A stretch of 63,934 nt of DNA, counting the filler, from an uncultured Methanosarcinales archaeon (GTDB taxonomy: Archaea > Nanobdellota > Nanobdellia > Woesearchaeales > BS150m-G63): the NCBI GenBank assembly GCA_964630685.1. It is 4 parts of 4 records of this genome, joined end to end, with 100 filler letters (N's around TTAATTAATTAA, not from the genome) between each part and the next. Parts side by side here need not be neighbours in the genome. Positions count along the whole stretch, not along the records: positions 1 to 8,885 come from CAZVVW010000002.1; 3 more parts are not named here. The stretch is one strand, 5' to 3'. Below, one piece after another: positions 2,219-16,389 of the stretch; the first letter of the stretch is position 1, and every line of letters starts with the position of its first letter. The notes below the pieces were generated by a model. That model had not been told where the DNA came from and ran no database searches. It saw only the letters and a program-made list of their open reading frames with translations. Position numbers and translations under genes: made by a program.

Positions 2219-2551
2219 TTATTTTTTATGTTTAATATTGAATATTTTGTTTAAGTGAGTTTTTACATTATTTTCAAGGTGGGGGTACTCACAATTACTA
2301 CAATCCCAGATTTTTTTAGAAGGTAATTTTTTTGAATAAGTCCATTTTCCATTAGGATTATCAATTAAACAACCACCTTCTTGATTATCTGTGTCGTAGT
2401 TAGGACAATAACATAAAAAACAGTTTAAATTATCCATATCATGACAAGGAATTTTTTGTTTATAACACATACATTCAGCTGGGTGATTGGTGCTTCTAGT
2501 TTCATAGTTATATTCTTTAATTATTTGGTTGATGTGATTTTCAAGATTCAT
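2219..2551 (-). CDS. Cysteine-rich small domain (zinc-finger-like) protein
   Basis: PCHxxxxLNCxxCYCP...GGC...IWDCSNCEYPH pattern; start moved to ATG 2551 (MNLENH) because the longer ORF runs into the repeat region. Confidence 0.7.
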   Translation of the reverse strand: MNLENHINQIIKEYNYETRSTNHPAECMCYKQKIPCHDMDNLNCFLCYCPNYDTDNQEGGCLIDNPNGKWTYSKKLPSKKIWDCSNCEYPHLENNVKTHLNKIFNIKHKK

Positions 2552-2823
2552 TTTTAAAAAATAATCTAATTCCTTAATGTATTTATTTAATTTTGAAAGT
2601 TTAATAATTTTTTGTTTTTTTATTAATTGGGAAGATTCAACATCGCGATAATTGCTGTTAAATACCCCGACGACCAACGGGAGGAGAGTTCAACGTGGTC
2701 GACTGACCGAAGGGAAGGAGAAGTTGAATTCTTACGTTACAGCGATATAGGCGAAGCCGTACGTTCAGTTTAGGGTGTGGCTGTCAGTTTACACATTAGT
2801 TAGTTCTTAGAAAAGGGTCGCCT

Positions 2824-3807
2824 CTACATCTGGATATTTGGGCAGAAATTGTATTTATGAACTTGATAAATACTTAGTGCAGAATAATCTTTTAAGATGT
2901 CATTAAATGTTGTTTTAATGTCCATCATTATTTCTCTAAATTGTTCGGCACTTTCTACTTCTAGATCAATTTCAAATTCCCAAGGTCCAAGAGATTTTAC
3001 AATATAGATGATATTGGGTTTTCTTCTACAATATTCTCTTAATGTTTTCTCTCTTTGTTCTGAAATGTTTCTGAAACCTATCAAAACTTTGTAATGAAGA
3101 AAAGGATATTTTGATTCATTCGGAACGATGTTATAATGTCTTATCACGCCAGATTTTTGTAATTTCCTAATTCTCTCGCCTACTGCGTCAGCACTTAATT
3201 TAATTTCATGGGCAATATCAACAGCTGTATTTCTTGAATTTTCTCCCAACATTAACAGAATTTTCCAATCATATTTATCCATCTTAACTGGAGAAGGGAC
3301 AGCACCAAAAAATGATTCTCTATATGAACTTGCTTGTTTTTTGTGAATAAGATAATCACGAATAAAATAATCTCCTCTGATGATTGTTGCAATTTGTCTA
3401 TCTGCTATATATTCTCCAAATTTTTTATCTAATTCTGTTAATGTTTTGTCAAGAAATTCCATGTTTTTTGCCCATGTGCCAAAAGCTAAATCAAATCTCC
3501 CATCACAACTAGCAATCCAAACAACATTTGGATGATTTTTAAGAAAATCTATCAATTCTTTTTCTTTTCCACTATCAAGATTTTGTAAACGTAAAAAATT
3601 CTTGTGAACTGTAAAACCTAATTTTGAGATGTCAATAACTGAATAGAAGAAAGAAATGATTTTTTCTTTGATTAATCTCTTAATCCGAAATCCGACAACT
3701 TGCTTAGATAATCCTACTTTTTTGGCAATTTCTGAATTGGACTGTCTTGAATTAATATCTAGTTGATAGAGTATTTTCCTGTCTTTTAAGTCCAATTTTA
3801 CTGCCAT
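2824..3807 (-). CDS. Lrp/AsnC-family regulator, tandem-duplicated (2x HTH + RAM)
   Basis: LDLKDRKILYQLDINSRQSNSEIAKKVGLS and a second MDKYDWKILLMLGENSR..IAHEIKLS HTH; GxxD motifs in both RAM domains. Confidence 0.9.
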   Translation of the reverse strand: MAVKLDLKDRKILYQLDINSRQSNSEIAKKVGLSKQVVGFRIKRLIKEKIISFFYSVIDISKLGFTVHKNFLRLQNLDSGKEKELIDFLKNHPNVVWIASCDGRFDLAFGTWAKNMEFLDKTLTELDKKFGEYIADRQIATIIRGDYFIRDYLIHKKQASSYRESFFGAVPSPVKMDKYDWKILLMLGENSRNTAVDIAHEIKLSADAVGERIRKLQKSGVIRHYNIVPNESKYPFLHYKVLIGFRNISEQREKTLREYCRRKPNIIYIVKSLGPWEFEIDLEVESAEQFREIMMDIKTTFNDILKDYSALSIYQVHKYNFCPNIQM

Positions 3808-3908
3808 ATTGTTATTTAATCTTTATTAGTATATAAATTTAGCGATTTTGTAAAAAATATGGCTAATAAGTTTAATATACTCTTAACTACTCTTATGTTA
3901 CTACTAAG

Positions 3909-4913
3909 ATGGAAAGAAAACTAGGAATAACAAAAAAGCTAGAAGACATGGCAGAAGAAGGAGGTTTAGATAGTTCTGTGGCTATGCTAAATCTACCTAG
4001 TGCTAATTATTGTGAAAAAAGAGCAGAAAGAGTTTATGAGGATGGAGGATTACAGCAGTCATGTTATGGTTGTGTTACTCAAGGGATTAAATCAAAAGAT
4101 ATTATTGATATTGATGAAGTAAAAAGAGTTATTGACTTCTTTGCTGAAAATTATGATACTAAGTTTATTACTATCAATGGTCGTGGTGATCCATTTAACC
4201 CTAGATTAAGTGCAGATAATTTAGAAAAGATTCGTTATGCACACGACCAATGGGGAATACAAGCTTATGTTTTTACAGCGGGAAATAATCTTGATGATAG
4301 GACTTGTCAACTATTAGCTGAAAATGAAGCTAATGTGATGATTAGTTTATTTGGAAATAGGTTCATTGATGCAGATTTTTTTAATGGAAAAGAGTACCCT
4401 GCAATGCCTAAACCATTTCAGAACCAAGCACAAATAGCTGAGAATCTTAGAAGGTTAATTGAAACTTACAGAGGAAGTGAAAGACAACCAGAAGAAGGAA
4501 CAACAAGAATTGGAATTAATTATGTTGTCTCTCAGAGTGATTTAGTTGATGGTGGTGCGAAGATTAGGGCATTAAAAAAAGCAGCCAATGATAATGGATT
4601 ATTTTTTGTAGCTAATACTGATTTCCAAAAACGCCCAGATGATGCAGTACAAAAAGCTTTTGAACAAATGGCAAATCAATATACTGATTTTAATTTGAGA
4701 CATAGCACGGCAGTTAATGGTCAGTGTCAGATGGGTGCAGGTTCTTCAGCAACAGTAGATTTTGATGGGACTTTATTACGTTGTCCCTACATGGATTCAT
4801 CTGAAGGTAATGGGAGATTTAATATTTTATCAGGCGAGAGAATTAGAGAAGTAGTTAGTGTTTATATGGCGGATAGATCATTTCCATGCGTGATGAGAAA
4901 ACATCAGAAATAA
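3909..4913 (+). CDS. Radical SAM-like protein with atypical CX16CX2C motif and SPASM/twitch-like C-terminus
   Basis: C-EKRAERVYEDGGLQQS-CYGC; INGRGDPF (GGEP-like); FTAG; C-terminal CxxGxxxxxVDxDGxLxxCP. Confidence 0.7.
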   Translation: MERKLGITKKLEDMAEEGGLDSSVAMLNLPSANYCEKRAERVYEDGGLQQSCYGCVTQGIKSKDIIDIDEVKRVIDFFAENYDTKFITINGRGDPFNPRLSADNLEKIRYAHDQWGIQAYVFTAGNNLDDRTCQLLAENEANVMISLFGNRFIDADFFNGKEYPAMPKPFQNQAQIAENLRRLIETYRGSERQPEEGTTRIGINYVVSQSDLVDGGAKIRALKKAANDNGLFFVANTDFQKRPDDAVQKAFEQMANQYTDFNLRHSTAVNGQCQMGAGSSATVDFDGTLLRCPYMDSSEGNGRFNILSGERIREVVSVYMADRSFPCVMRKHQK

Positions 4914-5032
4914 GAGGCGACCCTGTTTTAGTTATAGTTTTTACATTCTATTGTTGTGACAAGTCACACAAAGCCACACCTGTTTTTATCGTATTAGTAA
5001 GAATTCAATTGTATTTAACATTAGGAAATCCT

Positions 5033-6837
5033 TGTTAAACTCTCCGTTAGGATTGATTTTTAGTGCAACGATGCCGAAGGCAAAAAATCAAAGTCGAATT
5101 TTCACTTATATAATTTAGAGCGTAGCGAGTGTAACTGTCCGAAGGACTAAAGAGTTGGGGGCGTTCAATCTAGCTCGTTAGAGCCTTAAAGAACAAAAGG
5201 ATTGTAAGATGGCATGAATTAAAACCGCTAAGTTTTTATTATACATCAACTTAAGGATAATTATGTTAAATCAACCATTAATTAAATTTAATTTTTTTGA
5301 AGATAGTTTTGAAGAAGAACTAAATAAATTTAAAGATATTATTAAGAATTTAAATAATAGTAATGTTCATTATTCTAGTTTAAAGAATTTTCCCCCTTGC
5401 ATTATTGATAAAATAATATCTAAGGCAGATTCTAATACTCTGTATCTATCAAGATCAAATGCAATTTTGAATAACAATCTTTATTTTGGTGAGAATTTTA
5501 AATCACTAAATCGATTATTCTTAAGATCGCCTTTTATCTCCAATAAATGTAAAAATTGTATTCATTTTAAAAAAAATATTTGTCGAGGTTTATTGAATAA
5601 AAAGTTTTTAGAAAAGAAAGAACAAATTATTAAAAAAATAGGCTTAAAAAGATATAACGCGGTTAAAAGCGACTATGAAAATGGTTTATTTGTTTTTGGC
5701 TCTGTTTGTAATAACTCATGTAGATTTTGTGTCGATAAATTTGCTCCAGAAGAAGTAGTAAAGAAAATTCCATTTTTGTCAGAATATGATATTATTCATT
5801 TTTTACATTATCTATCAAAAAAAATTCAATGGGTTGGGACAAGTTATCATTGTGCAAGTGGAGAATTTTTTGATCATCCTAAATTTTTCAAGATTATGGA
5901 ATTTTTGCCATTTTTTATGTCTTCTAAATCCTGGCTTTTTACTAATTGTATTAGTCTTGATGAAGATATGCTCAAGATAATTAAGAAGAAAAACTTGAAA
6001 TTAATATTTTCTATTCATACTTTAAATGATGACATTAGGAAAAGGATAATGAATTATAAAGAAAATTTTAAAATTAAGGATAAACTAAAATTAGTAGATA
6101 AATACAATATTCGATATGAATGTTGGTTTGTTCCATTAAAATTTCTTATCAAAAGTGGTGATACAGATAATTCATTGAACTATCTCGTTAATTTTACAAA
6201 TACCAGAAAAATATCATTTAGCACTTCTTCTCCTAGCAAATATATTCCAGAAGAGATGAAAAAAGAGCTTTTAGTAGATAATTCATTAGTAAATAAATTA
6301 ATGAGGTATAATCATAAGATTAATTATGTTGATAATGGAGCAAAAGATATTCATAATCATAAAAGTGAAGATAATTCTTTTAAAAAGATTGCTGATCATA
6401 TAAAAAAGATTTGTAATGATAAAGGGTTGTTGGTACTAGCACCGAAAAGATCTTTTGATATTTTTAAAAAGGAATTTAGGAATAATATAAATATTGAGAT
6501 TAGGAAAGTAAATTCTTTTTTAGGTGAGAATATCGATATTTCAGGAGTTCTTACAGTAAAAGATTATGTTGAAGTAATTCAAAAAAGTAATCCTGGATAT
6601 GATTATATTATTATTCCCAAAAATTCTTTTGATATCAATCTAGATGATTTTATGCTTAATAGTATTAATGAGATCTACCATTATAAAAATAAACCATTGA
6701 TATTACTTTGATTTCTTGACTTTTGAATCTAATAAATTCGACCGAAGGGAGTGTATATGTGCGAAGCACCGCCCCCAACTCTTTTTTTGGTTCTTTTTTT
6801 AAAAGAACATTTAATGAAAATTCGATTGAGTTTAACA
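5033..6837. mobile_element. Putative gene cassette 2 bounded by three nested inverted-repeat pairs (radical SAM cargo)
   Basis: TGTTAAACTC 5033/GAGTTTAACA 6828; TCGAATTTTCA 5094/TGAAAATTCGA 6815; AAAGAGTTGGGGGCG 5149/CGCCCCCAACTCTTT 6770. Confidence 0.6.
5263..6711 (+). CDS. Radical SAM Fe-S protein with DUF512-like C-terminal domain
   Basis: CNNSCRFC motif, SGEFF, extra CKNC..C cluster; C-terminal NSFLGENIDISGVLTVKD...IIIPKNSFD resembles DUF512. Confidence 0.7.
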   Translation: MLNQPLIKFNFFEDSFEEELNKFKDIIKNLNNSNVHYSSLKNFPPCIIDKIISKADSNTLYLSRSNAILNNNLYFGENFKSLNRLFLRSPFISNKCKNCIHFKKNICRGLLNKKFLEKKEQIIKKIGLKRYNAVKSDYENGLFVFGSVCNNSCRFCVDKFAPEEVVKKIPFLSEYDIIHFLHYLSKKIQWVGTSYHCASGEFFDHPKFFKIMEFLPFFMSSKSWLFTNCISLDEDMLKIIKKKNLKLIFSIHTLNDDIRKRIMNYKENFKIKDKLKLVDKYNIRYECWFVPLKFLIKSGDTDNSLNYLVNFTNTRKISFSTSSPSKYIPEEMKKELLVDNSLVNKLMRYNHKINYVDNGAKDIHNHKSEDNSFKKIADHIKKICNDKGLLVLAPKRSFDIFKKEFRNNINIEIRKVNSFLGENIDISGVLTVKDYVEVIQKSNPGYDYIIIPKNSFDINLDDFMLNSINEIYHYKNKPLILL

Positions 6838-6946
6838 TCGGGCCCTGTTATATTCGTTTCCCATACGAAGTGTGGGAAACCTGCGTCCGCAGAGTTTTTG
6901 GATTACTAATCAATTCGACCGTAGGGAGACTATATGTCCGAAGGAC
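6729..6946 (+). repeat. 41-bp direct repeat pair (6729-6769, 6906-6946) forming double hairpins; third degenerate copy at 5118-5147
   Basis: 35/41 identical; differences include a compensatory stem change (GTGC-GAA-GCAC vs GTCC-GAA-GGAC). Confidence 0.85.
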
Positions 6947-7175
6947 TGGGGAGTCTAGTTCCTTCTAAAGAGCGAATGCGATACATCAAGAACAAGAATC
7001 AAGGGGGAGTTCTTTTTATCAAAGCCGAAGGCTCTTTTAGTTAGTACATTTAGGGGAGTTCCGTTCAATACAAGCGAACACAGTGAGCCTTCAAGAACAA
7101 GAAGAGAGGGGCGTTCAATTTTTACCGAAACTAGATATTTATCACTAAGTAGTAGTTATTAAACGAAACATTTAA

Positions 7176-7198
7176 AAAGTAGTAAATTTTACTACTTT
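7176..7198. promoter_or_regulatory. Palindromic operator overlapping the promoter of the RHH gene
   Basis: AAAGTAGTAAA-T-TTTACTACTTT perfect inverted repeat next to a TTTAAA TATA-like box; extra AAGTAGTA half-site at 7147. Confidence 0.55.
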
Positions 7199-7203
7199 AT
7201 AGT

Positions 7204-7347
7204 ATGAAAATTAAAGTTAGTGTTTCAATAGAAAAGGAATTACATGAAAAGGTGAAGGATAAAGTAGCCGTAAGTATATTCAGAAATACTAGCCATCTTG
7301 TAGAGCATGCTGTTGAATTATTCTTAAAGGAGGCTCAAAATGAGTAA
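7204..7347 (+). CDS. Small ribbon-helix-helix (CopG/Arc/MetJ-like) regulator, 47 aa
   Basis: Manual translation MKIKVSVSIEKELHEKVKDKVAVSIFRNTSHLVEHAVELFLKEAQNE; beta-strand then helix-NxS-helix pattern; overlaps next start codon. Confidence 0.8.
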   Translation: MKIKVSVSIEKELHEKVKDKVAVSIFRNTSHLVEHAVELFLKEAQNE

Positions 7348-8885
7348 TTTGCAAACTTTAGAGGAAATTGCAAATAATCTTGGAAATATGTTTAGGGCGA
7401 GCCATCCAGCTACACCAGTTTCAATAGACATTGATGGAAAAACAGCTGAACAGATTAAATTAGAATTGGAAGCATTGGGTGAAGATTCAGAGCAAAATAT
7501 AGTCTATATAAATGAAAGAATAGCCGAGATAGAAAAACTAACTGAAGATCCTTCTGATTTGAGTTCACCAACAGCTATTCAGAATGCAGCAAGAATTATC
7601 TCTGATGTTAAAAGAACAAAATCAAATATAAATGTTGGTGGAGAAACTGCAAAACAGTTAAATGATGATTATAAACAAAAATTGTTATTTGAATCAGGTT
7701 TTGAAAGCTATGAAGATGTTTCTACACAGATTGATAATCTATCATCTCAAAGAGCTAATCTAAGACAAAAATTTCTTGGAGGTCTTAGGTTTAAAGGTCA
7801 AATCAAAGATTTGGGTTCCAAAATTAATTCACTCTATGATCTTTCTCACACTCAACATGATGGAGTTAGAATTGGAGAACTTGGATACTTAGAAACTAGA
7901 CGTTTTGAGGATGCACAAGGCAAGTTATTTGGTAGATTTGCTAGCCAGTTATTTGATCAATATGATCAATTAGCAAGCCAATTAGTTAGAACCGATGATG
8001 AACAAAAAGCAGTTGCCCCTGCAATCCTTGAATCATTAACTGATGATTATGTCTCTAAATATTTTATGTCAAGAATTGATGCAGAATTAGAAGCAAATCA
8101 AAAACGAGATGATCATTACGGCAGAGAGAAAGTTGCAGTTTTAAGTGATCCAGCTCTTGTAGGTGAAGCATTATCTGTTCTTAGAGAAGGATTGAATCAA
8201 TCTCATGTTTTATGGGCAGGACAATCATATACTGAAGAACAAGAAGAAAGAGCAAGAGAATTGGATTCAAGATTAAGTGCTTTGCCCTATGAATTGAAAA
8301 GTATTGTTGAAAGAGGCATGATTAGAGGTAACAAAACTACAAATGATGAATTTGCAGAATTTGCAGATTATCTGACTCAAGTACCTATTGATATTCAACG
8401 AAGAGAATTATTGACATCACTTTCAACAGCTAAAGAACATGTATTGAGTGCTATATCTGATGATGATTTACCATATTCAATTACTGGTCAAAGATGGGAT
8501 CTTGAAAGATCTGCTAGCAACCTTGAACACTCATTAAAATCAACTGAGAAATCTGATTTTCTTAAAGAATTGGATATGGAAAAATGGGATGCTTTCAGAA
8601 ATAATGCAGGTGTTAGAGAAGTCTATGGTGCTGGAGCATTAGACTCATTTAATGATTTGATTAGGGGAGAAGTTTTTGATAGATTATTAGTAACACCAGA
8701 ACACACAAATGAATCAGTTGGGCTTGGTTACAAAGCTCTTTGGTTTAAAGATGCAGACTCAGTTGCCTATAACCTATTAAATTTCTGGAGAGAACCAGGA
8801 CATTCAGGAGAGCAACCCTTTTTATCAACACACTCAAGTTCAGAAAATACTCTTGGTGCACAATATATTGCATCATTAACAGATG
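7340..8885 (+). CDS. Hypothetical helical/coiled-coil protein, truncated at contig end
   Basis: Long ORF with AAGGAGG RBS; no motif recognised. Confidence 0.75.
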
Positions 8886-8985
8886 NNNNNNNNNNNNNNN
8901 NNNNNNNNNNNNNNNNNNNNNNNNNNNNNTTAATTAATTAANNNNNNNNNNNNNNNNNNNNNNNNNNNNNNNNNNNNNNNNNNNN
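8886..8985. other. Artificial contig linker
   Basis: N-run/TTAATTAATTAA/N-run (stops in all frames). Confidence 0.98.
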
Positions 8986-10153
8986 TGTGGGTAACGATTA
9001 TTACTTTAATGTAACTGGGTTCACTAATTATAGTGTTGGTGATTATATTGCTGAAAGTGTTGAGGTGGTTTCCTCAGCAAATGAAGATGTTATAGAGCCT
9101 GTTAATTATAAAATTGAGATGAATTATCTTGGTTTTGAATATAAGGGTGTTGATATGGGTGAATTGTTTAGGATTGTGATTGAAGAAGCAGGATATAGAT
9201 TACTTGATGGAGGGGTTGGTAATATGATTGGTACTGTTGGGCAATCTCTTGAAGTTGGTGATACTATTGAGTTGAGTTTGATGGCTATGAGATTAATTGA
9301 TTTAAGTGAATGGGTAGTAGAAGATATGGTGTTATATGTTAGAGAAGGTGTTTTGATTTCAGATGCTGTTAATGATATGTTGAGCGCTTTTGAAGAGGGT
9401 GTTGTTGAGATTGAATTAAGAGGTGTTGATGAGAATTCTGTTAATGTAGTGGTTGAAGGCGAAACTGTTGAAATTGGATTAGGAAAAACTGCTGAGTTTG
9501 ATATTAATAATGATTGGGTAACTGATTTAAGTGTTGAGTTTGTGGGTGTTGATGGAGGAGTTGTTGATTTGTTGGTGATACAGAAAGTTCCTGCTATTAG
9601 TTTGATAGATATTGATGGGAGAGTTGTTGAAGAAGAGGTTACTGGGGATGTTGTTGAAGAAGAGGTTACTGGGGATGTTGTTGAAGAAGAGGTTACTGAA
9701 GAGGGAAGTGATTTAACTGGTGGTGCTTATATGTTTATAGGTAGAGCTATTGGAGAAAATGGTATGGCTTTGCTTAGCTATTTTGTTGTTTTGATAATTG
9801 TTGTTGTAGGAATGTTGTTATCTCATGGACTGTCAAGGGTGGTTGTGGCTGTTCCAGAAAGAAAAGAAAAAATTAAAAAATTAAGTCTCTTACTAAAAGA
9901 TGTGCCAGAAGGAAGTGGTTTTGTATTAAAAGGTGGTAGAGTTGTGAAAAATATTGAAGAAATGGTGTTTGAGCTTATGAGTATGGGGGGGGAAGAATTT
10001 GTATGTTATGTTAATTGGAGTAAAAACGATATTGCTGAATGGATAAAATATGTTTTTAGAGAAAATGGACTTGCTGAAACTTTGAAAGGAGAGAAAGATA
10101 AAGAAAAAATTGCTGTTTTACTTTATGAAGCTTTGAGGAATGCTAAGAAATGA
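8986..10153 (+). CDS. 5'-truncated membrane-anchored surface protein with DUF5752-like cytoplasmic tail
   Basis: Begins mid-module (YYFNVTGFTNYSVG); TM helix; FVLKGG.VVKN...VNxxKNDIAEWIKYVF..xxLA tail. Confidence 0.7.
9623..9698 (+). repeat. 27-bp coding tandem repeat x~2.8 (VVEEEVTGD)
   Basis: gttgttgaagaagaggttactggggat repeated. Confidence 0.9.
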
Positions 10154-13100
10154 ATTCAAAAAAAAGAGTTTGGAACAAGAAAGGGTATGGTGAATTAGTG
10201 GGAGTTGGGATTATCATTCTGCTTGCATTAGTTTTCACTGTTTCAAAACCTTTGATAACTGGATTGGTTGCTGGAAATACTAGTTTAGATAACATTAGCC
10301 TGAATTTGAGTGTTGAGAATATGAGTGTTGTTGAAGAAAATGCTTCTGTTGGTGTAATAGTGGTTGAAGAAAACGTCTCTTTATTTGAAGAAGTGATGAC
10401 TAATATTACTGAAAATGAAACTGTGGAAAATATAAGTTTGGAGAATTTGGGTTTAGAGAATGTTACTGGAAATGTGGATGTTAATGTAAGCGAGATTAAT
10501 CTTAGTTTAGATAATTTGAGTATTGAGAATGTTTCTATTAATACGAGTGTGAATATTACTGAAAATATTAGTATTAATGAAACTCTGGAAGTTGTTGAAA
10601 AATTGATTGTGGAAAACATAAGTTTGGGGAATATTACTGCTGAAAATGTTAGTGTGAATTTAAGTGCTAATGTTACTGAAAATATTACTATTAATGTGAC
10701 TACTGAAGAAAAAATAGTGGGGAGAGTGATGATTAATAGACCTGTCAAGTTTATCAAAAAAATTAAACTTACTGCTTCTAAAGAAAATCTGATTGTTGAA
10801 TTGCCTAAGAATGCTAGTAATATTGAAGTTAAGAAAATAACTGGAAGAGTTGAGAAAGATATTTCTAACAAAGTTGTTGTTAAGAAAGGTGAAATAGTGG
10901 AAGAGTTAAGCGAACATAATCTTGCAATACTTACTGGGGGGGTTGTTGGTGGTGTGGGTGATGGATTGTTGTTTAAATTGATTGATTGGCTGAAAGGATT
11001 GTTTAGATTTACAGGTTATGTTGTTGAGGAAATCACAGAAGACTCGATGAACTTGTCTTCAGTACTTTCTTCAACTGAAATAATTGTTGAAGAAAGCGTA
11101 GAAGAGATTGAGGTAGAATATGAACTGCCTGGCCCTACTGCTGTTGAAGAAGAATTGGGGGGCGGGCGAAAAAGAATAGTTGTGAGTTCTGAAATACATT
11201 ATGAAGATATTTTGGCTTATACTTTTATTCCTGATAGTGCTGTTGAGAGTGTTAAATTGTATTGGATTGTTGATGGAGAACGTGAAAGCGTAAACTTTGA
11301 TGGATATGATACTACTGGGACTGGATTGGTTGATTATGTTGAATGGATTGTGCCAAGTTTGAGTAATCAGACTTATGAGATTGAAATTAATGTATTGAAT
11401 CCTATCGAATATCTGCGTGATGGAGATACTTGGACTATGATGTTTAACACTACTGGAACTGCTAATCTGAGTATTAGAAGTACTAATGCTTATTGGGAAG
11501 AGGTTATGGTTGATAATGGTGAAAGTGTTGATGAGATGAGATTTGTGGATTTCAAATGTGGAGAAGATTCTCTACTCGATGTGTTGAAGATTATTAATAA
11601 TGATGGGTATGTTTATGATTATAGCTCAATTAGTGATGATGATTCAATAAAACCTGTTGAGTTTTTAGTGGAAGATTACAGCTGTAGTGAAATTGGAAGG
11701 TTTGTGAATTATATGAATATAGGTGGTTATGCTACACTAATTCTTGAGTTTAGCAATCAAGATATGAGTGTAACTGATTATGCTTATGATCCAAGCTATA
11801 CTTATGACAGTTGTGATAATATCACTGTGAGTGGAACTCATGAGATGAATGCAAGTATAGATTATTATAATGATACTGAGCTTTGTTTTAATATTAATGC
11901 TTCAGATGTTGTGTTTGATTGTGGGGGATATCACATAGACGGAGAATATAATGCAAATTATGTTAATACTTTTACTGCAATAAATATAGATAATGTTACT
12001 AATGTTACTGTGAAAAATTGTGATATTACTGACTTTACTTATGGGATCTATTATGATGGTGGTTCTGATAATGGATATATTTTCAATAATTCAATCCACT
12101 TGGTAGACAGTAATTATACTATTGCAGGAATTGTTTCCGATACTTCTGATAATGTTTTGATTGATTCTAACACTATAAGAAATATTGGAGATGGGGGTGT
12201 TGGAAGTATGGGTATTTCTGTATCTGAATGTACCGGAAATAATGTGACTAACAATATTCTCCATGATATTTCTGGAAGTGGAATATATGTCAGGGGGTCT
12301 GGACATCTTGTGGATAGCAATGAGATTAATGACACTCAAAGTGGAAATAGTTTTGCTGCGATTCAATTAGATAATTGTGATGATAGTTTAATTAATGCTA
12401 ATGAGCTTATTGGAACTAATGGATGTAGTGCTAAATGTAATAATTATGGAATAGAATTAGACACTTCTAGTAATAACAATATAACTGGAAATACTATTAA
12501 TAATCCAACCGATAATTTTGTGTATCTTCATTCTTCCTCCATTGGAAATAGGATTGTTGATCAAGTGTTTAATATAACTCAATTTGGTGCTGGTGTGAAG
12601 TTGACTAGTGCTTGTGAAAATAATACTCTGGACAATCTTACTATACATAATTCATATTTAGATGGAATTGAATTTAGTGATAGCTCTAATAACAATAATA
12701 TTACTGATGTTGAAATGAAGTACAATAATTATTCTGGAATTAGTTTTGATGATTCTCATAACAATAGTGTTTATGCTGTTTTGATTACTGATAGTCAGGA
12801 TTCTGCTGTTTATTTCTTGAATTCGTCTGGAAATGAATTTATGGATTCTACTTTAGATGGCAATTCTTTACACTGGGGGGATGATGCTGATGTTTGGGTT
12901 GAGGGAACTGCTAGTGGTACAAATACTTTTGTGAATATTTCTTTTAATGAAAGTGCTACTTTATTCAGTGATTCTGGAAGTAGTGCCATCTATGTTAATT
13001 GGTATCTTGATGTTTATGTGAATGATAGTAGTGGTGCTATTAATGGAGCTAATGTGAGTGCTTGGGATACTGATGATTTGTTTGTGTTTTCTGTTTTGAG

Positions 13101-13650
13101 TGGTGGAGATGGATGGATAGCGAGACAAAACATTAGTGAGTATTATGAAAATTGTTCTAGCTGTAATTGGGTTGCTGGAACTAAAAATTATCTGACTAAT
13201 TATACTTTGAATAATACTAAGAGTGGATATGGTGGGGATTCTCGTGGGGTAAATCTTACTGATAATGGTGTGGTGTATGTTACTTTGAGTGTACTTATCC
13301 CCTCTAATAAGAAGTTTGCTATTACTACCAGTTATGATGATATTGTTGGGAGTATTGATGATACTGGAAACATGTTTATTAGGGGTACTTTGTCAGAAGA
13401 ATCTTCAATTAGTTTGAGTCCTGAAGCTAATTCTTTTATCTTGCAGGACAATACTGGGAGAGATATTGCTTATGTTTCAAACACAGGTAATTTGTTTTTG
13501 GTTGGGGAATTGACTGAGAATGCTGTGATGAGGGTTCCTGTTACTGCTTTGAAGTTTGTGAATGCTTCTGATTCTTTAGTTGCTTTCTTTGATAATAGTG
13601 GAAATCTTAAATTGAAGGGTTCTTTGGCTCAGAGTTATAGTGATCCTTAA
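10150..13650 (+). CDS. Large surface glycoprotein with parallel beta-helix (PbH1/NosD-like) repeats
   Basis: N-terminal TM; dense N-x-S/T sequons; INASDVVFDCGG..I, NVTVKNCDI and GIxLxxSxNNxIxxN repeats. Confidence 0.85.
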   Translation: MNSKKRVWNKKGYGELVGVGIIILLALVFTVSKPLITGLVAGNTSLDNISLNLSVENMSVVEENASVGVIVVEENVSLFEEVMTNITENETVENISLENLGLENVTGNVDVNVSEINLSLDNLSIENVSINTSVNITENISINETLEVVEKLIVENISLGNITAENVSVNLSANVTENITINVTTEEKIVGRVMINRPVKFIKKIKLTASKENLIVELPKNASNIEVKKITGRVEKDISNKVVVKKGEIVEELSEHNLAILTGGVVGGVGDGLLFKLIDWLKGLFRFTGYVVEEITEDSMNLSSVLSSTEIIVEESVEEIEVEYELPGPTAVEEELGGGRKRIVVSSEIHYEDILAYTFIPDSAVESVKLYWIVDGERESVNFDGYDTTGTGLVDYVEWIVPSLSNQTYEIEINVLNPIEYLRDGDTWTMMFNTTGTANLSIRSTNAYWEEVMVDNGESVDEMRFVDFKCGEDSLLDVLKIINNDGYVYDYSSISDDDSIKPVEFLVEDYSCSEIGRFVNYMNIGGYATLILEFSNQDMSVTDYAYDPSYTYDSCDNITVSGTHEMNASIDYYNDTELCFNINASDVVFDCGGYHIDGEYNANYVNTFTAINIDNVTNVTVKNCDITDFTYGIYYDGGSDNGYIFNNSIHLVDSNYTIAGIVSDTSDNVLIDSNTIRNIGDGGVGSMGISVSECTGNNVTNNILHDISGSGIYVRGSGHLVDSNEINDTQSGNSFAAIQLDNCDDSLINANELIGTNGCSAKCNNYGIELDTSSNNNITGNTINNPTDNFVYLHSSSIGNRIVDQVFNITQFGAGVKLTSACENNTLDNLTIHNSYLDGIEFSDSSNNNNITDVEMKYNNYSGISFDDSHNNSVYAVLITDSQDSAVYFLNSSGNEFMDSTLDGNSLHWGDDADVWVEGTASGTNTFVNISFNESATLFSDSGSSAIYVNWYLDVYVNDSSGAINGANVSAWDTDDLFVFSVLSGGDGWIARQNISEYYENCSSCNWVAGTKNYLTNYTLNNTKSGYGGDSRGVNLTDNGVVYVTLSVLIPSNKKFAITTSYDDIVGSIDDTGNMFIRGTLSEESSISLSPEANSFILQDNTGRDIAYVSNTGNLFLVGELTENAVMRVPVTALKFVNASDSLVAFFDNSGNLKLKGSLAQSYSDP

Positions 13651-13728
13651 TAGAAAGATTTATATATTACTAATAGTAAAATGCTATTTATTGAATTATA
13701 AAACTTTAATTAGTAGTAAATTACTATA

Positions 13729-13902
13729 ATGCCAAAACATACTATAGAACTGAGCAAAGAAGAGATTAGGGTAATTAATGTAATTAAAGCAGTCAAAGAT
13801 ATCAAGAGTATAGACAAAGCGATTTCTTTTATTCTTTCTGATTATGCTGAAAATAAAGATTATATAAAATTTATACAGGAAAAAGGGGAAATGAATAAAT
13901 GA
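13729..13902 (+). CDS. Small DUF2683-like/antitoxin-like DNA-binding protein, 57 aa
   Basis: Manual translation MPKHTIELSKEEIRVINVIKAVKDIKSIDKAISFILSDY...; ATGA overlap with next gene. Confidence 0.65.
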   Translation: MPKHTIELSKEEIRVINVIKAVKDIKSIDKAISFILSDYAENKDYIKFIQEKGEMNK

Positions 13903-14513
13903 ATAAATTAAAAAAAGGTAATGTGTCAGAATTGGCTAATATAAGTCAAAATTGGCTAAATATACTTATTCCTTTTAGTTATAATTATAATGAAAAATTT
14001 AGTGGAAGTGAGTTATCAAGAATTCTTAGTACTCCCCAAAGAAGTGTTGCTAGATATCTTTCACAATTAGTTGAAAATAACCTTCTTAAATTTGAGATTA
14101 GGGGTAAAAATAAATTTTATTATCTTGATTTAGAAAATAAAAAAATTAAAATCTTAATGAATCTTCTTGAGAATCAAAAATCTTTGAAATTTCAATTAAA
14201 AAATAGCAAGATTGCTGTGATTATCAATGAATTTTTAGATAATGGTGAAGGAGTTATCTTATTTGGTTCTTATGCTTGTGGTAAAGAAGATGTTAAATCT
14301 GATTTAGATCTGGTTGTTTTTAATTCAAAAAATACTGATAAAATCAAGAGTCATTATTCTATTGAAATTAATGTACATGAAATTAAATATTCTGAATTCA
14401 AAAAAATACTTGATGAGAAAAATCCCCTTGCTTTAGAGATATTAAATAACCATATTCTTTTTGGCGATGTATCTAAAATGGTTGATATCTTTTGGAGGTT
14501 TTATAATGGATAA
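13899..14513 (+). CDS. HTH + minimal nucleotidyltransferase (MNT) antitoxin
   Basis: Winged HTH N-terminus; VILFGSYACG...SDLDLVV nucleotidyltransferase motif. Confidence 0.9.
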   Translation: MNKLKKGNVSELANISQNWLNILIPFSYNYNEKFSGSELSRILSTPQRSVARYLSQLVENNLLKFEIRGKNKFYYLDLENKKIKILMNLLENQKSLKFQLKNSKIAVIINEFLDNGEGVILFGSYACGKEDVKSDLDLVVFNSKNTDKIKSHYSIEINVHEIKYSEFKKILDEKNPLALEILNNHILFGDVSKMVDIFWRFYNG

Positions 14514-14940
14514 ACTAAATTGGTGTTTAAAACAAAAAAGGGGGGTAGAATTGATTTCTTTAAAACCTCATTTAAAAAATTCTTATATTAAAGATGCTGA
14601 AAATAGTATGGAAATTTGTTCAACAATTAAAGGAAAATGGAAGTTGATTACTGGATATTATGCTTGTTATAATGCTCTTTATGCTATTTTGATGATGTGC
14701 GGAATTAAAAGTGAGATTCATGATTGTTCAATTGAGTTGATGAGTTTATTTGATTTTTCTGAAAAAGATGTTAGTTTTTTGAGAGGTTTGAAAAAAGATA
14801 GAATTCAAACACAATATTATCTGAAAGAAGTATTGTTTGAAAATGAAGATGGTGTAAAAGATTTTGTTGTTAAATGTAAAGAAATTTTAGATGGGTTATC
14901 TTCATCTAAAATAGAAAAAATAAGAGAAAAAATTAAATGA
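14506..14940 (+). CDS. HEPN domain protein (cognate of MNT)
   Basis: WxxITGYYACYNALYAILxxxGIKSEIHDC, RIQTQYY; start ATG 14506 after GGAGG. Confidence 0.85.
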   Translation: MDKLNWCLKQKRGVELISLKPHLKNSYIKDAENSMEICSTIKGKWKLITGYYACYNALYAILMMCGIKSEIHDCSIELMSLFDFSEKDVSFLRGLKKDRIQTQYYLKEVLFENEDGVKDFVVKCKEILDGLSSSKIEKIREKIK

Positions 14941-16319
14941 ATAAATCAAAGATACTTGGGATGTGTATGTTGTTTGTGTTATTCTCTATTAGTGTCTATG
15001 CTATTCCTCAGAGTATCACTGTAAATGGTCTTTTGACTGACAGCAATAATGATAGCTTAACTGGCACTTATGAAATTAATTTTACTATTTATGATAATGC
15101 TACTGGTGGAAATGTTGAATACAATACTATTAAGAATGTAACTACTGATGCTAATGGTGTGTATAATGTTGTGTTGAGTGGGTTAGATATTGATTTTTCT
15201 GAAGCTTATTACTTAGGAGTTCAAATTGAGAGTGATGCTGAGATGACTCCTAGGTTGAATTTAACTAGTTCACCTTATGCGTTTTCTACTTCTGGATTGG
15301 ATGCTGAAATTAACCTAAGCCATGATGTAAATATTGATGGGGGAACTTTATTTATAGATGCTGATGGAGATCGGATTGGTATTGGGCTAACTACTCCTGA
15401 AGCAAAATTGCATGTTAATGGTACAATTCGTGTAGATAGTGGGTTGGGGTATATTAGCACTTTATATTCTAATGGGCTTGAATTTAATAGAACATCTTTG
15501 AATTATATAGATCTGTTAACTGGTGGTGGCTTAGCATTTAGAATAAATTATTCTACTAAAATGATATTGACAACTGATGGAAAGGTTGGTATTGGGGCTA
15601 CAAATCCATTGGCATTATTGTCTGTTGGTGGGGATGGAGAAGCAGCATCATTTAGTGTATCAGGACAATCAGGATTAAGAAATATAGCGACATTTAGAGA
15701 TGTAAATGGAGAAAATGTGTTTCAAGCTTCAGGTTCTGTTTCTGAAGCGGATTTAGAAGTTAGTTTTGGAGACATGGATGAAGCAGGAAACGGAAATTAT
15801 TTTAAAACAACAGATTCAAAAACATATTTTATAGGTGGCAATGTCGGAATTGGAACAACAACACCTTCTTCTACACTACATATTAATGGAACTGTTAATG
15901 ATCTTAGTGGTGGTTTAGCATTTGGTGATGGTGATTCTGGTATTTTTGAAAAGAGTGATGATACCATTTATGTTTGGACTAGTGGTTCTAGAGATTTAGA
16001 GATTAGTACTATTAGTTTTAAAGTAAATACTCCTAATTTCATGTCTACCAATTCTAATAGGTGGAAGATTAATGGAGGGAGTAATCCTTCTGACACAACA
16101 GCTACTTTTTTAGTTAATCAAAGTGATACCAATACTGGAATTGGTGGTGATGGCAGTGATCAACTTTCTTTGATTGCTGGTGGTAAGGGTTTGACTGTTG
16201 CTAATGTGTCTTCTGGTATGGAAGCAAGTACTACAGAGGGTAATGTCACTATAACTAGTAGTGGAGGTTCTGTGATTATTAAGAGTAGTGGAGGTTCTGT
16301 GATTATTAAGTTAGGTTAA
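14937..16319 (+). CDS. Secreted protein with tail-fibre-like GNVGIGTTTP repeats
   Basis: Signal peptide; GxLTD...EMTPRLxLTSSPYA head module; repeated (G)xVGIGxTxP..LHxNG; terminal SSGGSVIIK duplication. Confidence 0.75.
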   Translation: MNKSKILGMCMLFVLFSISVYAIPQSITVNGLLTDSNNDSLTGTYEINFTIYDNATGGNVEYNTIKNVTTDANGVYNVVLSGLDIDFSEAYYLGVQIESDAEMTPRLNLTSSPYAFSTSGLDAEINLSHDVNIDGGTLFIDADGDRIGIGLTTPEAKLHVNGTIRVDSGLGYISTLYSNGLEFNRTSLNYIDLLTGGGLAFRINYSTKMILTTDGKVGIGATNPLALLSVGGDGEAASFSVSGQSGLRNIATFRDVNGENVFQASGSVSEADLEVSFGDMDEAGNGNYFKTTDSKTYFIGGNVGIGTTTPSSTLHINGTVNDLSGGLAFGDGDSGIFEKSDDTIYVWTSGSRDLEISTISFKVNTPNFMSTNSNRWKINGGSNPSDTTATFLVNQSDTNTGIGGDGSDQLSLIAGGKGLTVANVSSGMEASTTEGNVTITSSGGSVIIKSSGGSVIIKLG

Positions 16320-16321
16320 TA

Positions 16322-16355: not shown

Positions 16356-16389
16356 ATATTTAAAAAGAGAAAGTGCCTAAACTGTTTCT

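Follow-up and report, generated by a model that had tools for sequence, protein, structure and literature searches.

A probable tandem array of split-palindrome gene cassettes in an uncultured archaeon

A locus in the genome of an uncultured archaeon (assembly GCA_964630685.1) is probably the start of a tandem array of cassettes that each integrated as a circle, through Xer-type recombination in the middle of its own palindrome. Nested inverted repeats, a family of similar loci with covarying helices, sharp boundaries, diverse cargo and linked recombinase genes were observed; inference extends to a circular intermediate and the way it folds, to the enzyme involved and to the precise point of crossover. 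The window, meaning the whole stretch of DNA analysed, is 63,934 nucleotides long and consists of contigs joined by filler.

Inverted repeats of the locus

All seven perfect inverted repeat pairs of the original prediction were found in units 1 and 2. Unit 1 has four exact pairs in strict nesting order: helix a (2656-2665/5011-5020, 10 bp), b (2724-2735/4997-5008, 12 bp), c, equivalent to X elsewhere (2774-2782/4972-4980, 9 bp), and d, equivalent to Y (2814-2825/4913-4924, 12 bp). As had been claimed, the innermost pair touches both stop codons, taking in 2 bases of the minus-strand stop (2824-2826) and 1 base of the plus-strand stop (4911-4913), and unit 2 starts 12 nt beyond the end of unit 1. 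The exact pairs of unit 2 are a (5033-5042/6828-6837, 10 bp), b (5094-5104/6815-6825, 11 bp) and X (5149-5163/6770-6784, 15 bp), and a further exact 10-bp pair (5085-5094/6705-6714) lies out of nesting order. Comparison of helices a and b between the two units gave five compensated double changes and none uncompensated. Unit 3 is indeed cut by a contig end, positions 8886-8985 being an N44-TTAATTAATTAA-N44 linker between concatenated contigs, and its 5' blocks had no partner anywhere in the window.

The nested chain as observed was never reached in 2000 dinucleotide shuffles of the two flanks of either unit, but the window-wide scores were only modestly above chance. Short AT-rich inverted repeats are common in the window, and an unweighted scan gave chance chains of 38-55 bp versus 43 bp in unit 1. 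When chains were weighted by composition and penalised for gaps, units 1 and 2 ranked first and second in the window (60.1 and 53.9; next chain 51.0). Since block-shuffled windows reached these scores in 2/150 and 6/150 cases, respectively, the repeats taken alone are only moderately significant, and the decisive support is comparative.

Organization of the array

The left boundary of the array, J0 (2636-2662, plus strand), consists of TTCAACA, a 13-nt spacer with the palindrome ATCGCGAT, and TGTTAAA; by sequence, the spacer resembles the collapsed e/e' ends of an inter-cassette element in loci L061 and L062. The 5' module of unit 1 (2656-2825, plus strand) contains helices a to d and a degenerate copy of M, a 30-nt two-hairpin motif taken from the locus, with hairpin 1 at 2705-2715 and hairpin 2, GGCGAAGCC, at about 2750. 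Its start type (TGTTAAAT.CCCCGAC...) recurs in L078, L014, L067 and L046. The cargo had been described as Lrp plus radical SAM. Pfam bears out the first part, a tandem double Lrp/AsnC-type regulator on the minus strand, antisense to the shell (2824-3807; HTH_24, HTH_AsnC-type, AsnC_trans_reg), a homologue of which (35% identity) is the cargo of an S2-shell unit in L016, where it is antisense too. The second part is weak: the 334-aa plus-strand protein (3909-4913) had no Pfam hit, its best NCBIfam hit, rSAM_STM4011, scored 20.8 bits against a cut-off of 200, and its family is left unassigned. The 3' module (4913-5020, plus strand) runs d', c', b', TT, a' and has no M copy. The 12-nt junction spacer J1 (5021-5032, plus strand) has an internal palindrome, AGGA..TCCT, and looks like a collapsed form of a spacer element of roughly 85 nt in L086, which is flanked by AGGATTTAGAGA/TCTCTAAATCCT.

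Unit 2 has a shell of subfamily S1. Its 5' module (5033-5215, plus strand), aligned with those of L043, L072, L033 and L061 (alignment A1), comprises a, local hairpins, b, M (5118-5147), X and a conserved tail to about AAGAACAA. The cargo is a radical SAM/DUF512 protein by Pfam (5263-6711, plus strand) with just 9 homologues among 5.8 billion clusters, and the S1 3' module (6729-6837, plus strand; alignment A2) comprises M (6740-6769), X', a T-run and hairpin (6790-6808), b', TT and a'. After spacer J2 (6838-6845, plus strand; TCGGGCCC) follows the 5' module of unit 3 (6846-7125, plus strand), with a (6846-6855), a 10-bp hairpin (6853-6880), an S2-type b (6895-6906), M (6917-6946), X from 6947, and then repeated GGGG.GTTC...AAGAACAAG sub-modules; L004 and L006 have long 5' modules of similar architecture. 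The cargo (7204-8885, plus strand) is a ribbon-helix-helix protein (7204-7347, plus strand), with an 11-bp operator-like palindrome upstream at 7176-7198, followed by a larger protein of more than 515 aa and no known family, cut by the contig end. A scan of 55 window ORFs gave no domain of a recombinase, as originally noted, or of a transposase.

Motif M and related loci in other genomes

The M pattern had three exact matches in the window versus none in 100 shuffles. Searching genome contigs with M gave 112 matching stretches in other genomes, mostly of DPANN archaea, about 80 of them in AT-rich DPANN-type context with homologous flanks. The shared architecture is 5' a–b–M–X(–Y), cargo of 1.6–8 kb, and 3' (Y'–)M–X'–b'–a', with M in the same orientation at both ends. 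M is multicopy, and in 23 of the 63 AT-rich loci it lies no more than 250 nt from the end of a contig. The M hairpins covary: among 74 distinct copies, Watson-Crick pairs stand at positions 2/8 in 71 (GC 20, CG 46, AT 5) and at positions 21/27 in 72. Covariation by subfamily is also seen in helices a, b and X. Among 27 consecutive same-strand M pairs, 13 at distances of 1.6-8.1 kb had X/X' complementarity of 9-16 bp, and 11 of these 13 units also had b/b' of 11-15 bp; b/b' is imperfect in L003 and L062. In the 11 canonical units with both ends, a/a' was exact in five, one base off in two and missing in four (L003, L016, L033, L043). It was exact in six small units beside xerA, which added two further sequence types; the six a-types in all have an invariant TGTTA core in common.

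When 5' and 3' modules were cross-compared, cognate ends had a mean of 41.6 paired bp versus 21.8 for non-cognate ends, and high values were confined to comparisons within subfamilies. The modules on either side of J1 have only 7 bp in common. The repeats had been thought cassette-specific; they are instead subfamily variants of a conserved shell common to cassettes in other genomes. Nor do the layers appear to record successive captures, as the places of helices a, b, X and Y with respect to conserved motifs are the same in all members.

Cargo and boundaries

In five genomes, shell S1 encloses unrelated cargo: a radical SAM protein, a methyltransferase with MjaI endonuclease, an ABC transporter, a UvrD helicase, and DndB with AbiEii. 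S1 homology begins at TGTTAAAC and ends at ...TTTAACAT, breaking at TGTTA and TAACA. The left neighbour of one cassette differs between L004 and L006, and here too the break falls at TGTTA. Within a conserved shell of about 300 nt, cassettes hold 1-5 genes that can face either way, and 13 of 34 cargo ORFs, including the unit 1 Lrp gene, are antisense to the shell. No target-site duplications flank units 1 or 2. The view of the locus as a tandem, co-oriented array of discrete cassettes with TGTTA/TAACA boundaries is supported by the relatives. The idea of a capture or shuffling system also gains from the exchanged cargo and neighbours, from the recombinase beside arrays outside the window, and from the folding of the cassette ends described below.

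Recombinase genes beside the arrays

A tyrosine recombinase adjoins the arrays in 8 of 42 loci and was not seen in the DNA available for the other 34. It is the only recurrent non-cargo family in the loci, no transposase being recurrent. The best model for all eight was archaeal XerA, NF040815 (202-239 bits; five pass the cut-off of 220). Against the integron-integrase model they scored 145-206 bits and none passed the cut-off of 265; each match was split into two stretches, and the insertion specific to IntI is therefore absent. The cassette-end signature ATT[GA]N4TAAC was present on the sense strand 71-253 nt upstream of the recombinase gene in 8/8 cases, against a background of 0.042 per 330 nt. 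The gene lies downstream of the cassettes and is co-directional with them; in L014 a matching a lies downstream of the gene, and xerA can therefore be internal to an array as well as terminal. Since the window has no recombinase and unit 3 is cut, the link to XerA comes from other genomes, and the adjacency might merely be due to a chromosomal dif site nearby.

Proposed mechanism

Each cassette would carry one long imperfect palindrome, with its halves at the two ends, made of helices a, b, X and Y (c and d for the latter two in unit 1) and interrupted by side hairpins and motif M. In the putative circular cassette the halves would be contiguous, and a branched hairpin could form from single-stranded or cruciform DNA, with ...TAACA / short spacer / TGTTA... 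at its tip. A recombinase of the XerA family would recombine this tip with either an existing junction or a site adjacent to the recombinase gene, leaving one half of the palindrome on each side of the cargo and hybrid junctions between neighbours. Insertion at the palindrome centre would therefore give nested repeats that match within a cassette and not across a junction. When the own ends of units 1 and 2 were joined in silico, one long branched hairpin was predicted (MFE -45.9 and -53.8 kcal/mol, DNA parameters), versus -27 to -31 kcal/mol for real array junctions or swapped ends.

Several points count against the cassette mechanism, including the absence of a recombinase from the window and from the DNA available for 34 of 42 loci, the a/a' missing from four canonical units, the imperfect b/b' of L003 and L062, the position of xerA in L014, the possible dif site and the loading step that the shells would imply. 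The distance from TAACA to TGTTA also varies: the window spacers measure 8, 12 and 13 nt, those of other loci 4-9 nt and that of L086 about 85 nt. Such variation is unusual for a classical Xer core site, which has a fixed short centre. In addition, the mechanism does not account for a need for helices b, X, Y or M.

Alternative explanations

One alternative, which we consider unlikely, is a device acting in RNA. The array would be transcribed as long plus-strand RNAs, in which the two modules of a unit would pair like archaeal rRNA-flanking processing stems, and such pairing would delimit, insulate or regulate each unit; or a short RNA from the 3' M-X' region would be antisense to X of the 5' leader. 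The covariation of the M hairpins would fit, as would the GC enrichment of the modules (0.38-0.42 versus about 30% for the genome), the strand specificity of all motifs (CCGAAGG occurs six times on the plus strand, each time inside the locus, and never on the minus strand) and the TATA-like AT-rich stretches before M and T-runs after X'. However, many cargo ORFs are antisense to the shell, and the helix blocks are perfectly Watson-Crick over 521 bp, with no plus-strand G-T (G-U) wobble inside. Folding z-scores of plus-strand intergenic RNA were unremarkable (-1.45 and -0.93), the Rfam search matched no family, and the sharp homology breaks at TGTTA/TAACA, the neighbour differences and the linked recombinase genes would be left unexplained.

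It is improbable to the same degree that the modules are palindromic non-coding repeats of MITE or REP type between ordinary genes of a variable island, with exchange at their centres, homologous or site-specific, shuffling the halves and the genes not being mobile. The elements carry no enzyme, and they are multicopy and break assemblies. Locus L025 has a homotypic junction, in which an S1 3' end, the J2 spacer TCGGGCCC and an S1 5' end follow one another. The window junctions, in contrast, are heterotypic although the ends of each unit match, which fits circle integration and not insertion of a palindromic repeat. Units 1 and 2 also have no target-site duplication, and a shell with its cargo recurs beside different left neighbours (L004, L006).

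A family of cut-and-paste transposons, with TG...CA termini and ends made of several blocks, would depend on a DDE transposase encoded elsewhere and acting in trans; this reading is very unlikely. Units do start with TGTTA and end with TAACA, and the asymmetric block spacing of their two ends may be likened to Tn7/Mu-type ends, but target-site duplications are lacking. Blocks within one end are mutually unrelated and vary by subfamily yet stay complementary, which is not expected of protein-binding sites, and the recurrent enzyme is a tyrosine recombinase.

We give very little credence to a canonical integron cassette array without integrase (CALIN), although archaeal integrons, including those of Nanoarchaeota, were described in 2022 by Ghaly et al. 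(PMC9668308). The array is co-oriented and, as originally noted, the ends of units 1 and 2 fit GTTRRRY/RYYYAAC. The start of unit 3, GTTATAT, does not, and RYYYAAC-to-GTTRRRY distances in the window junctions are only 24-27 nt, far shorter than attC. The recombinases fail the integron-integrase model, the cassettes have 1-5 genes in either orientation within a long conserved shell, and none of 12 contig-set prefixes of the loci occurs in the available, possibly truncated, text of Data S1-S10 of PMC9668308. That short inverted repeats clustered by chance in DNA rich in AT, for which equally long unweighted chance chains and the 2/150 shuffled windows at the unit 1 score could speak, is practically out of the question and is already refuted by the comparative data, at least 12 other genomes having the architecture together with its covarying helices. 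Local shuffles never gave the chain, and the two highest-ranked chains abut each other.

Comparison with known systems

The integron comparison is an analogy only. Integrons, like the proposed cassettes, form tandem co-oriented arrays of promiscuous cassettes without a recombinase of their own, with near-identical sites around unrelated genes, similar cassette ends and a tyrosine recombinase gene adjoining the array. In both, the first cassette bases are complementary to a box near the cassette end, and site sequence varies with complementarity kept, which suggests a folded DNA substrate. The recombinase here is XerA-like without the IntI insertion, and its gene is downstream and co-directional, whereas that of integrons is upstream and divergent. 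Unlike in integrons, complementarity reaches 100-230 nt inward from either end, on both sides of a cargo of 1.6-8 kb with 1-5 genes in either orientation, window spacers are just 8-13 nt, and the direct-repeat motif M is conserved at both ends.

Vibrio filamentous phages, which stack at dif, are examples of integrative mobile elements exploiting Xer (IMEX), and one IMEX member uses a folded single-strand hairpin as attachment site. As in IMEX, elements without a recombinase would integrate via host Xer and pile up in tandem at one site; IMEX are not known in Archaea, and no description of one there was found in the literature at the level of titles and abstracts. The elements here differ in being non-replicative gene cassettes and not phages, in a palindrome centred on the crossover point and not a duplex site formed in its stem, and in variable spacer length. 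IMEX are reviewed in PMC5357621. The pdif modules of Acinetobacter plasmids are likewise discrete modules in series, in either orientation between inverted Xer-type sites, with defence, resistance or toxin-antitoxin genes as cargo. Their boundaries, however, are simple sites of 28 bp, and they have no conserved multi-helix shell, M motif or subfamily-specific covariation. Publications on pdif modules are PMC9771954 and bioRxiv 10.1101/2024.04.09.588662. Mobile insertion cassettes and MITE-like elements share terminal inverted repeats around cargo and the lack of an own enzyme; here, target-site duplications are absent, the repeat blocks are discontinuous and matched by unit, and inter-unit junctions are hybrid.

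No published description of such a system was found in the literature, and split-palindrome cassettes are apparently a gene-shuffling system undescribed so far. Members of the family are spread widely among DPANN archaea (Woesearchaeota, Nanoarchaeota, Pacearchaeota), and near-identical shells with unrelated cargo would imply a second step in which genes are loaded into shells.

The cassette locus and its genes

The window has an AT-rich composition (A 0.346, T 0.338, G 0.182, C 0.134) and encodes the archaeal markers aEF-1alpha, ribosomal protein S10, PTH2 and a wyosine enzyme. It is a pseudomolecule: separate contigs are joined by linkers of the form N44-TTAATTAATTAA-N44, with stops in all six frames, at 8886-8985, 37535-37634 and 61853-61952, two 100-N gaps lie at 23292-23391 and 56424-56523, and gene neighbourhood across any of these is not real. 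The two genes of unit 1 (2656-5020) diverge from an intergenic region of their own and encode a tandem double Lrp/AsnC regulator (minus strand, 2824-3807) and a protein of unknown family (3909-4913). The latter had been taken for a radical SAM enzyme, a designation that rests on a match of 20.8 bits against a cut-off of 200. Unit 2 (5033-6837) encodes a radical SAM protein with DUF512 (5263-6711). Unit 3, which begins at 6846, encodes a ribbon-helix-helix protein (7204-7347) and an unknown protein (7340-8885) cut at the contig end; as the original prediction had it, the unit is truncated there, the contig stopping at 8885 and the linker starting at 8886. The intergenic stretches 2640-2823, 4914-5262 and 6712-7203 have a GC content of 0.38-0.42, above that of the surrounding genes. 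PADLOC returned nothing for the window cargo beyond HTH-domain matches for the Lrp protein.

Immediately 5' of the ribbon-helix-helix gene lies an 11-bp perfect palindrome (AAAGTAGTAAA / TTTACTACTTT, 7176-7198), which resembles an operator for autoregulation. Another gene for a tandem double Lrp/AsnC regulator (47470-48435) is found on a different contig with no shell around it, among octopine-dehydrogenase-like, B12-binding, ATP-grasp and peptidase C26 genes. Elsewhere, the neighbouring contig encodes, at 9000-23000, proteins of secreted type and very large size (1166 and 1502 aa) that contain right-handed beta-helix/NosD repeats, and has a strong GC skew, up to 0.79; pieces of the GGGCCCAACG type recur on the minus strand at about 44.7-44.9 kb (44650-44960). 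Unusual tRNA genes were noted at 56083-56207, 57366-57461 and 54491-54576; the first is a 125-nt Rfam tRNA match with a presumed intron, one has a four-base anticodon loop as read by ARAGORN, and one tRNA-Ser was detected by ARAGORN alone.

Nested inverted repeats and chance

All seven perfect inverted-repeat pairs of the original prediction were recovered at their coordinates and in strict nesting, and unit 2 was found to hold an additional, out-of-order 10-bp pair (5085-5094/6705-6714). The expectation that such nesting exceeds shuffled controls held clearly for the local flanks, where the observed chain was reached in 0 of 2000 dinucleotide shuffles of each pair of flanks, while window-wide significance was less clear-cut. 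The window holds 3474 inverted pairs of at least 9 bp spaced 300-6000 nt apart, and unweighted chaining across it gave chance chains of 38-55 bp. A composition-weighted, gap-penalised scan ranked unit 1 first (60.1) and unit 2 second (53.9), the next chain scoring 51.0; in block-shuffled windows a score of 60.1 was reached in 2/150 and 53.9 in 6/150.

Units 1 and 2 have homologous ends: each 3' end reads b'-TT-a', and in helices a and b the two units differ by five compensated double changes and no uncompensated one. The heptamer CCGAAGG occurs six times on the plus strand, always within the locus, and never on the minus strand. Hairpins of 3 bp with a GNA loop closed by C-G are likewise found six times on the plus strand, all in the locus, and three times on the minus strand, all elsewhere; mini-hairpins with GNA loops are unusually stable DNA hairpins. 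A 41-nt direct repeat begins at 5107, 6729 and 6906.

A further 15-bp perfect inverted repeat, 3167-3181/4832-4846 (22 nt at 86%), lies within both coding regions of unit 1 and extends the nesting of that unit inward; it may be due to chance, with about 0.3 such pairs expected per window by a rough estimate. No further copies of the element were found elsewhere in the window; GCGAAGC at 41646 was considered as an extra copy and rejected, as it sits in an unrelated AT-rich spacer. No partner for the opening end of unit 3 was found in the window, due to the contig end.

The M motif in other genomes

From three copies of the direct repeat a 30-nt degenerate pattern, M, was built, consisting of two mini-hairpins 7 nt apart. 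It matches three times in the window and not once in 100 shuffles. Scanning 185,579 species genomes with M gave 112 stretches, for roughly one match expected by chance from a pattern of about 40 bits by our own estimate; the window's own contig is not among the 112, and loci L081-L112 came with 300-nt flanks each and were used for motif context alone. The matches are mostly in MAGs of Woesearchaeota, Nanoarchaeota and Pacearchaeota, with others labelled Methanosarcinales, Patescibacteria etc. Sixteen of the 79 loci with flanks are GC-rich and bacterial (Verrucomicrobia, Luteolibacter, Nocardiopsis and others) and were excluded as a different repeat because their flanks are unrelated. These GC-rich repeats have the two-mini-hairpin core of M; in one Verrucomicrobiaceae MAG (L011, L020, L030, L040, L048, L065) they lie at the ends of at least six contigs, and in Luteolibacter marinus (L007) two copies are 561 nt apart. 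Probably they represent a separate multicopy element.

All copies of M lay on one strand in each of the 18 sources with at least two matches (L063 being a duplicate of L062). Hairpin positions 2 and 8 were paired in 71 of 74 distinct copies (GC 20, CG 46, AT 5) and positions 21 and 27 in 72 of 74, under a search pattern that fixed G or C at the hairpin positions without demanding complementarity. As expected of a multicopy element, M lay less than 250 nt from a contig end in 23 of the 63 AT-rich loci. A protein identical to the radical SAM enzyme of unit 2 is encoded on a contig of just 1905 bp in another assembly, which is explained by multicopy shells breaking assemblies. DPANN-type shells were also seen on contigs binned elsewhere (L046, L069, L044 and L024, Patescibacteria label), and about 15 loci with a Methanosarcinales label bear typical DPANN-type shells as well; L046 combines a shell with an archaeal-type XerA (239 bits). 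Their presence in other lineages could be explained either by mis-binning caused by the repeats or by cross-lineage transfer.

Organisation of the shell and matching of its ends

The flanks of the AT-rich M matches are conserved in a modular fashion, from which the layout of the shell, a 5' and a 3' module around the cargo, was read. The 5' module starts with a short G/C-containing end (AATCCT, AATCGC or GGCCC) followed by TGTTA and 5 nt, which form helix a, then has one or two hairpins, AGAGT and helix b (11-15 nt), from which an AT-rich stretch leads to M. After M come the G-rich helix X (10-16 nt), another hairpin and AAGAACAAG...AAGGG(G), and the module often closes with helix Y abutting the cargo. 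The 3' module opens with Y', whose last bases are CCCCTT, and an AT-rich stretch; M follows, oriented as in the 5' module, and after it the C-rich X', a T-run with an AT hairpin, b', TT(G) and a', which ends in TAACA. Unit 2 is a typical example of this layout, the 5' module of unit 3 a long one. Unit 1 is a variant form whose M is degenerate and whose pairs c and d occupy the usual positions of X and Y, d starting with AAGGG like other Y helices.

Consecutive same-strand M pairs numbered 27, of which 13 were 1.6-8.1 kb apart with X/X' complementary over 9-16 bp; 11 of these 13 units also had b/b' of 11-15 bp, the exceptions being L003 and L062. Four pairs with a distance of 162-234 nt are junctions between a 3' module and the next 5' module, and their ends were unmatched save in L025, whose adjoining cassettes are of the same subfamily. 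When 5' and 3' modules were compared 14x14, cognate combinations averaged 41.6 bp (minimum 25) and non-cognate ones 21.8. The cognate was best or tied-best in just 5 of 14 rows because high non-cognate values occur within a subfamily; off-diagonal high chains were confined to such comparisons. The subfamilies are S1 (window unit 2, L033, L043, L061, L072), S2 (L016, L026, L062, L067), S3 (L003, L023, L078) and S4 (L004), with window unit 1 standing by itself.

Helix a could be assessed in 11 of the 13 canonical units, where it was exact in five, one base off in two and absent in four; it is exact in window unit 1. It was also exact, with two extra sequence types, in six small units just 5' of recombinase genes, a sample biased by the search for an a/a' match through which these units were located. 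In total, 521 bp of helices consist of Watson-Crick blocks with no internal plus-strand G-T wobble. The four mismatches among them all fall in two doubtful AT-rich helices, and are too few for a comparison of G-T with A-C mismatches to discriminate between strands. The spacer between TAACA and TGTTA varies from 4 to about 85 nt, and the long forms are bordered by an inverted repeat of their own, e/e'.

At the junction of units 2 and 3 (J2, spacer 6838-6845) an 81-codon ORF (6723-6968) spans the spacer, two M copies 177 nt apart sharing its frame, and a second frame is open at 6751-6909. We take these frames as a probable by-product of GC-richer non-coding DNA.

Cargo

Within S1 the shell is about 90% conserved across five genomes. 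The 5' homology begins at precisely TGTTAAAC and extends to near AAGAACAAGAAT.AAGGG, and the 3' homology runs from about 10 nt 5' of M to ...GAGTTTAACAT. The five cargoes are mutually unrelated: a radical SAM protein; an N6/N4 methyltransferase with MjaI endonuclease; an ABC transporter; a UvrD helicase; and DndB with AbiEii. S2 shells enclose a double Lrp with two unknown proteins, two methyltransferases with AlwI, a ThsB-TIR protein with a C5 methyltransferase and HaeIII endonuclease, or a methyltransferase, AlwI and a second methyltransferase. Cargoes of S3 and S4 are a class II aminoacyl-tRNA-synthetase-like protein, a nucleotidyltransferase, and an Eco57I-type enzyme with a PLD-helicase. 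The 13 complete units contain 1-5 ORFs of at least 80 aa each, 13 of the 34 being antisense to the shell. The double Lrp of unit 1 has a 35%-identical homologue in the cargo of L016, in an S2 shell and likewise antisense; its partner gene there showed no relation to window gene 3909-4913. The same S4 cassette is present in L004 and L006, and the sequences upstream of its TGTTA are unrelated.

A XerA-type recombinase beside the arrays

The absence of a recombinase from the window, part of the original prediction, was confirmed by a scan of its 55 ORFs. No recombinase domain is found in units 1-3, and no recombinase among the cargo ORFs of at least 80 aa in the 13 complete units. For the neighbourhoods of the arrays, 471 ORFs of at least 120 aa from 42 AT-rich loci of at least 6 kb (43 chosen, duplicate L063 removed) were clustered all against all. 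Recurrent families were few, namely SAM methyltransferases, DNA methyltransferases and one family of tyrosine recombinases, the last in 8 of the 42 loci within the sequence available for each. A Pfam scan of five recombinases found PF00589 and a SAM-like N-terminal domain in all five. The best NCBIfam model for all eight was archaeal XerA (NF040815, 202-239 bits; five pass the cut-off of 220). None of the eight reached the cut-off of 265 for the integron-integrase model TIGR02249 (145-206 bits), which matched each of them in two stretches, skipping the IntI-specific insertion.

In seven loci the recombinase gene lies downstream of, and co-directional with, the M copies; in the eighth, L014, the sole M copy is downstream of xerA. 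A cassette-end signature, ATT[GA]N4TAAC, preceded the start codon by 71-253 nt on the sense strand in 8/8, for a background of 0.042 per 330 nt that includes true cassette ends, and in six loci the complementary a opening a 5' module was found 0.4-1.2 kb further upstream. In L014 a matching a lies downstream of xerA, and therefore the recombinase gene can lie within an array. The signature at 44413 on the minus strand of the window was discarded, since it falls within coding sequence and has no recombinase in its vicinity. In L023 (6640-6890), L049 (1150-1330), L032 and L042, the stretch that separates the last cassette end from the start of the recombinase gene carries repeated short motifs, among them CTGTTTTGGGTG...GTCTGCTTAAT three times and ACTGGACAC-type repeats; they may be regulatory or attachment-site elements.

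Comparison with known systems

In its function the element resembles an integron, stacked Xer-exploiting elements or pdif modules. The attC sites of integrons are folded imperfect palindromes of roughly 57-141 nt with paired R''/R' (RYYYAAC/GTTRRRY) and L''/L' boxes. At J1, the junction of units 1 and 2 (spacer 5021-5032), ATTTAAC...GTTAAAC measures 27 nt; at J2, GTTTAAC...GTTATAT measures 24 nt and its second box is off the attC consensus. Longer junctions with an inner inverted repeat occur in L086, L061 and L062. Integrons use an IntI-type integrase with an extra domain near patch III, whereas no such enzyme is encoded in the window or by any of the eight genes beside arrays. The usual integron cassette has a single ORF without a promoter, oriented like those of the other cassettes, whereas 1-5 ORFs are found here, with 13/34 antisense. 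The arrays thus depart from integrons in two defining features, type of integrase and form of cassette.

The Xer-exploiting integrative elements (IMEX), like the window units and the 13 complete units, lack a recombinase of their own. IMEX are integrated by host Xer at dif; here a XerA-type gene is present in 8/42 loci, no recombination event was observed and spacer length is variable. Inverted pairs of 28-bp XerC/XerD sites border pdif modules. J2 can be read as such a site of 11-6-11 with 7/11 symmetric positions; the same reading of J1 and the other junctions would require centres of 5-10 nt.

In the openly accessible literature searched, on integrons of archaea, cassettes and mobile elements of DPANN, and elements that exploit Xer, this architecture was not described, nor was it in the accessible parts of studies of archaeal integrons (PMC9668308), archaeal Xer/dif (PMC2958812) and tyrosine-recombinase classification (PMC8138268). 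The accessible text of the data files of the archaeal-integron study (PMC9668308) contains none of 12 contig-set prefixes of our loci.

A transposon with terminal inverted repeats, a MITE or a mobile insertion cassette would leave a target-site duplication, whereas the flanks of units 1 and 2 have no direct repeat in common; no transposase domain is present in the window or among the recurrent families of the 42 loci. That the helices act as RNA was considered as well. DNA is favoured over RNA as the acting form, since the helices hold no G-U-type pairs and part of the cargo lies antisense. Folding z-scores of the intergenic regions as RNA were -0.9 to -2.9 on both strands and decisive for neither. 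A known RNA family was rejected, as only three tRNAs in the window pass the Rfam gathering threshold and the seven matches at E up to 10 in 2400-7400 are all far under cut-off. Rfam gave zero matches in six related loci and ARAGORN nothing within the locus. The bulge-helix-bulge motif of archaeal processing stems has two 3-nt bulges on opposite strands with a 4-bp helix between them inside a long-range stem, whereas at the a-b junction of both window units 2 nt on one strand face 51-58 nt on the other. The RNA of a group II intron or diversity-generating retroelement, brought up by the spread of matches over DPANN, Patescibacteria and Methanosarcinales, was rejected as no reverse transcriptase recurs. 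Precursor peptides of RiPPs, as a reading of the ORF across J2, were set aside since the conserved features are hairpins and not codons. Split tRNA or T-arm-like pieces, kink-turn or C/D-box RNA and archaeal origin-recognition boxes, weighed on the basis of the sequence, were likewise dropped.

Proposed mechanism and implications

Arm sequences vary while complementarity is kept, with six types of a and several of b and X. This free variation argues that selection would act on the base pairing of the arms and not on protein recognition of a fixed sequence. The attC sites of integrons and the single-stranded attachment site of a XerCD-using Vibrio phage similarly keep complementarity while their sequence varies. 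When its own ends were joined in silico and folded with DNA parameters, each unit gave a single branched hairpin, of -45.9 kcal/mol for unit 1 and -53.8 kcal/mol for unit 2; real junctions and swapped ends folded at just -27 to -31 kcal/mol. The simplest and most likely account takes the shell as one long imperfect palindrome that would be contiguous while the cassette is circular, and integration as a crossover at the palindrome centre, TAACA | spacer | TGTTA. Such an event would leave the cargo with half of the palindrome on either side and would make the junctions of neighbouring cassettes hybrid, the arrangement observed. We infer the circle and how it folds, that XerA is the recombining enzyme, the precise point of crossover, and whatever part M, b, X and Y play. 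A tentative reading, possible but somewhat short of probable, is that DPANN archaea have their own analogue of the integron, in which a housekeeping-type XerA stacks cassettes of largely restriction-modification and other defence genes, the folded site being formed from the two ends of the cassette by four covarying helices and the shell of about 300-450 nt serving as a portable vector around unrelated genes.

If this is true, a large and poorly understood archaeal branch has a dedicated and widespread platform for gene capture and reshuffling, driven by a Xer-type enzyme and not by an integron integrase. It would be a third solution, after integrons and bacterial Xer-exploiting elements, for moving genes that lack an enzyme of their own. 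The shells fragment metagenome assemblies and may misplace DPANN contigs into the bins of other taxa. An integron analogue of this kind would also offer a tractable route to the old question of how cassettes originate from genes; with unrelated cargo inside one conserved shell, the genesis of cassettes is open to direct test. The platform gathers restriction-modification, Thoeris-like TIR, AbiE and DndB genes, and this concentration therefore bears on the acquisition of defence by ultra-small symbiotic archaea.
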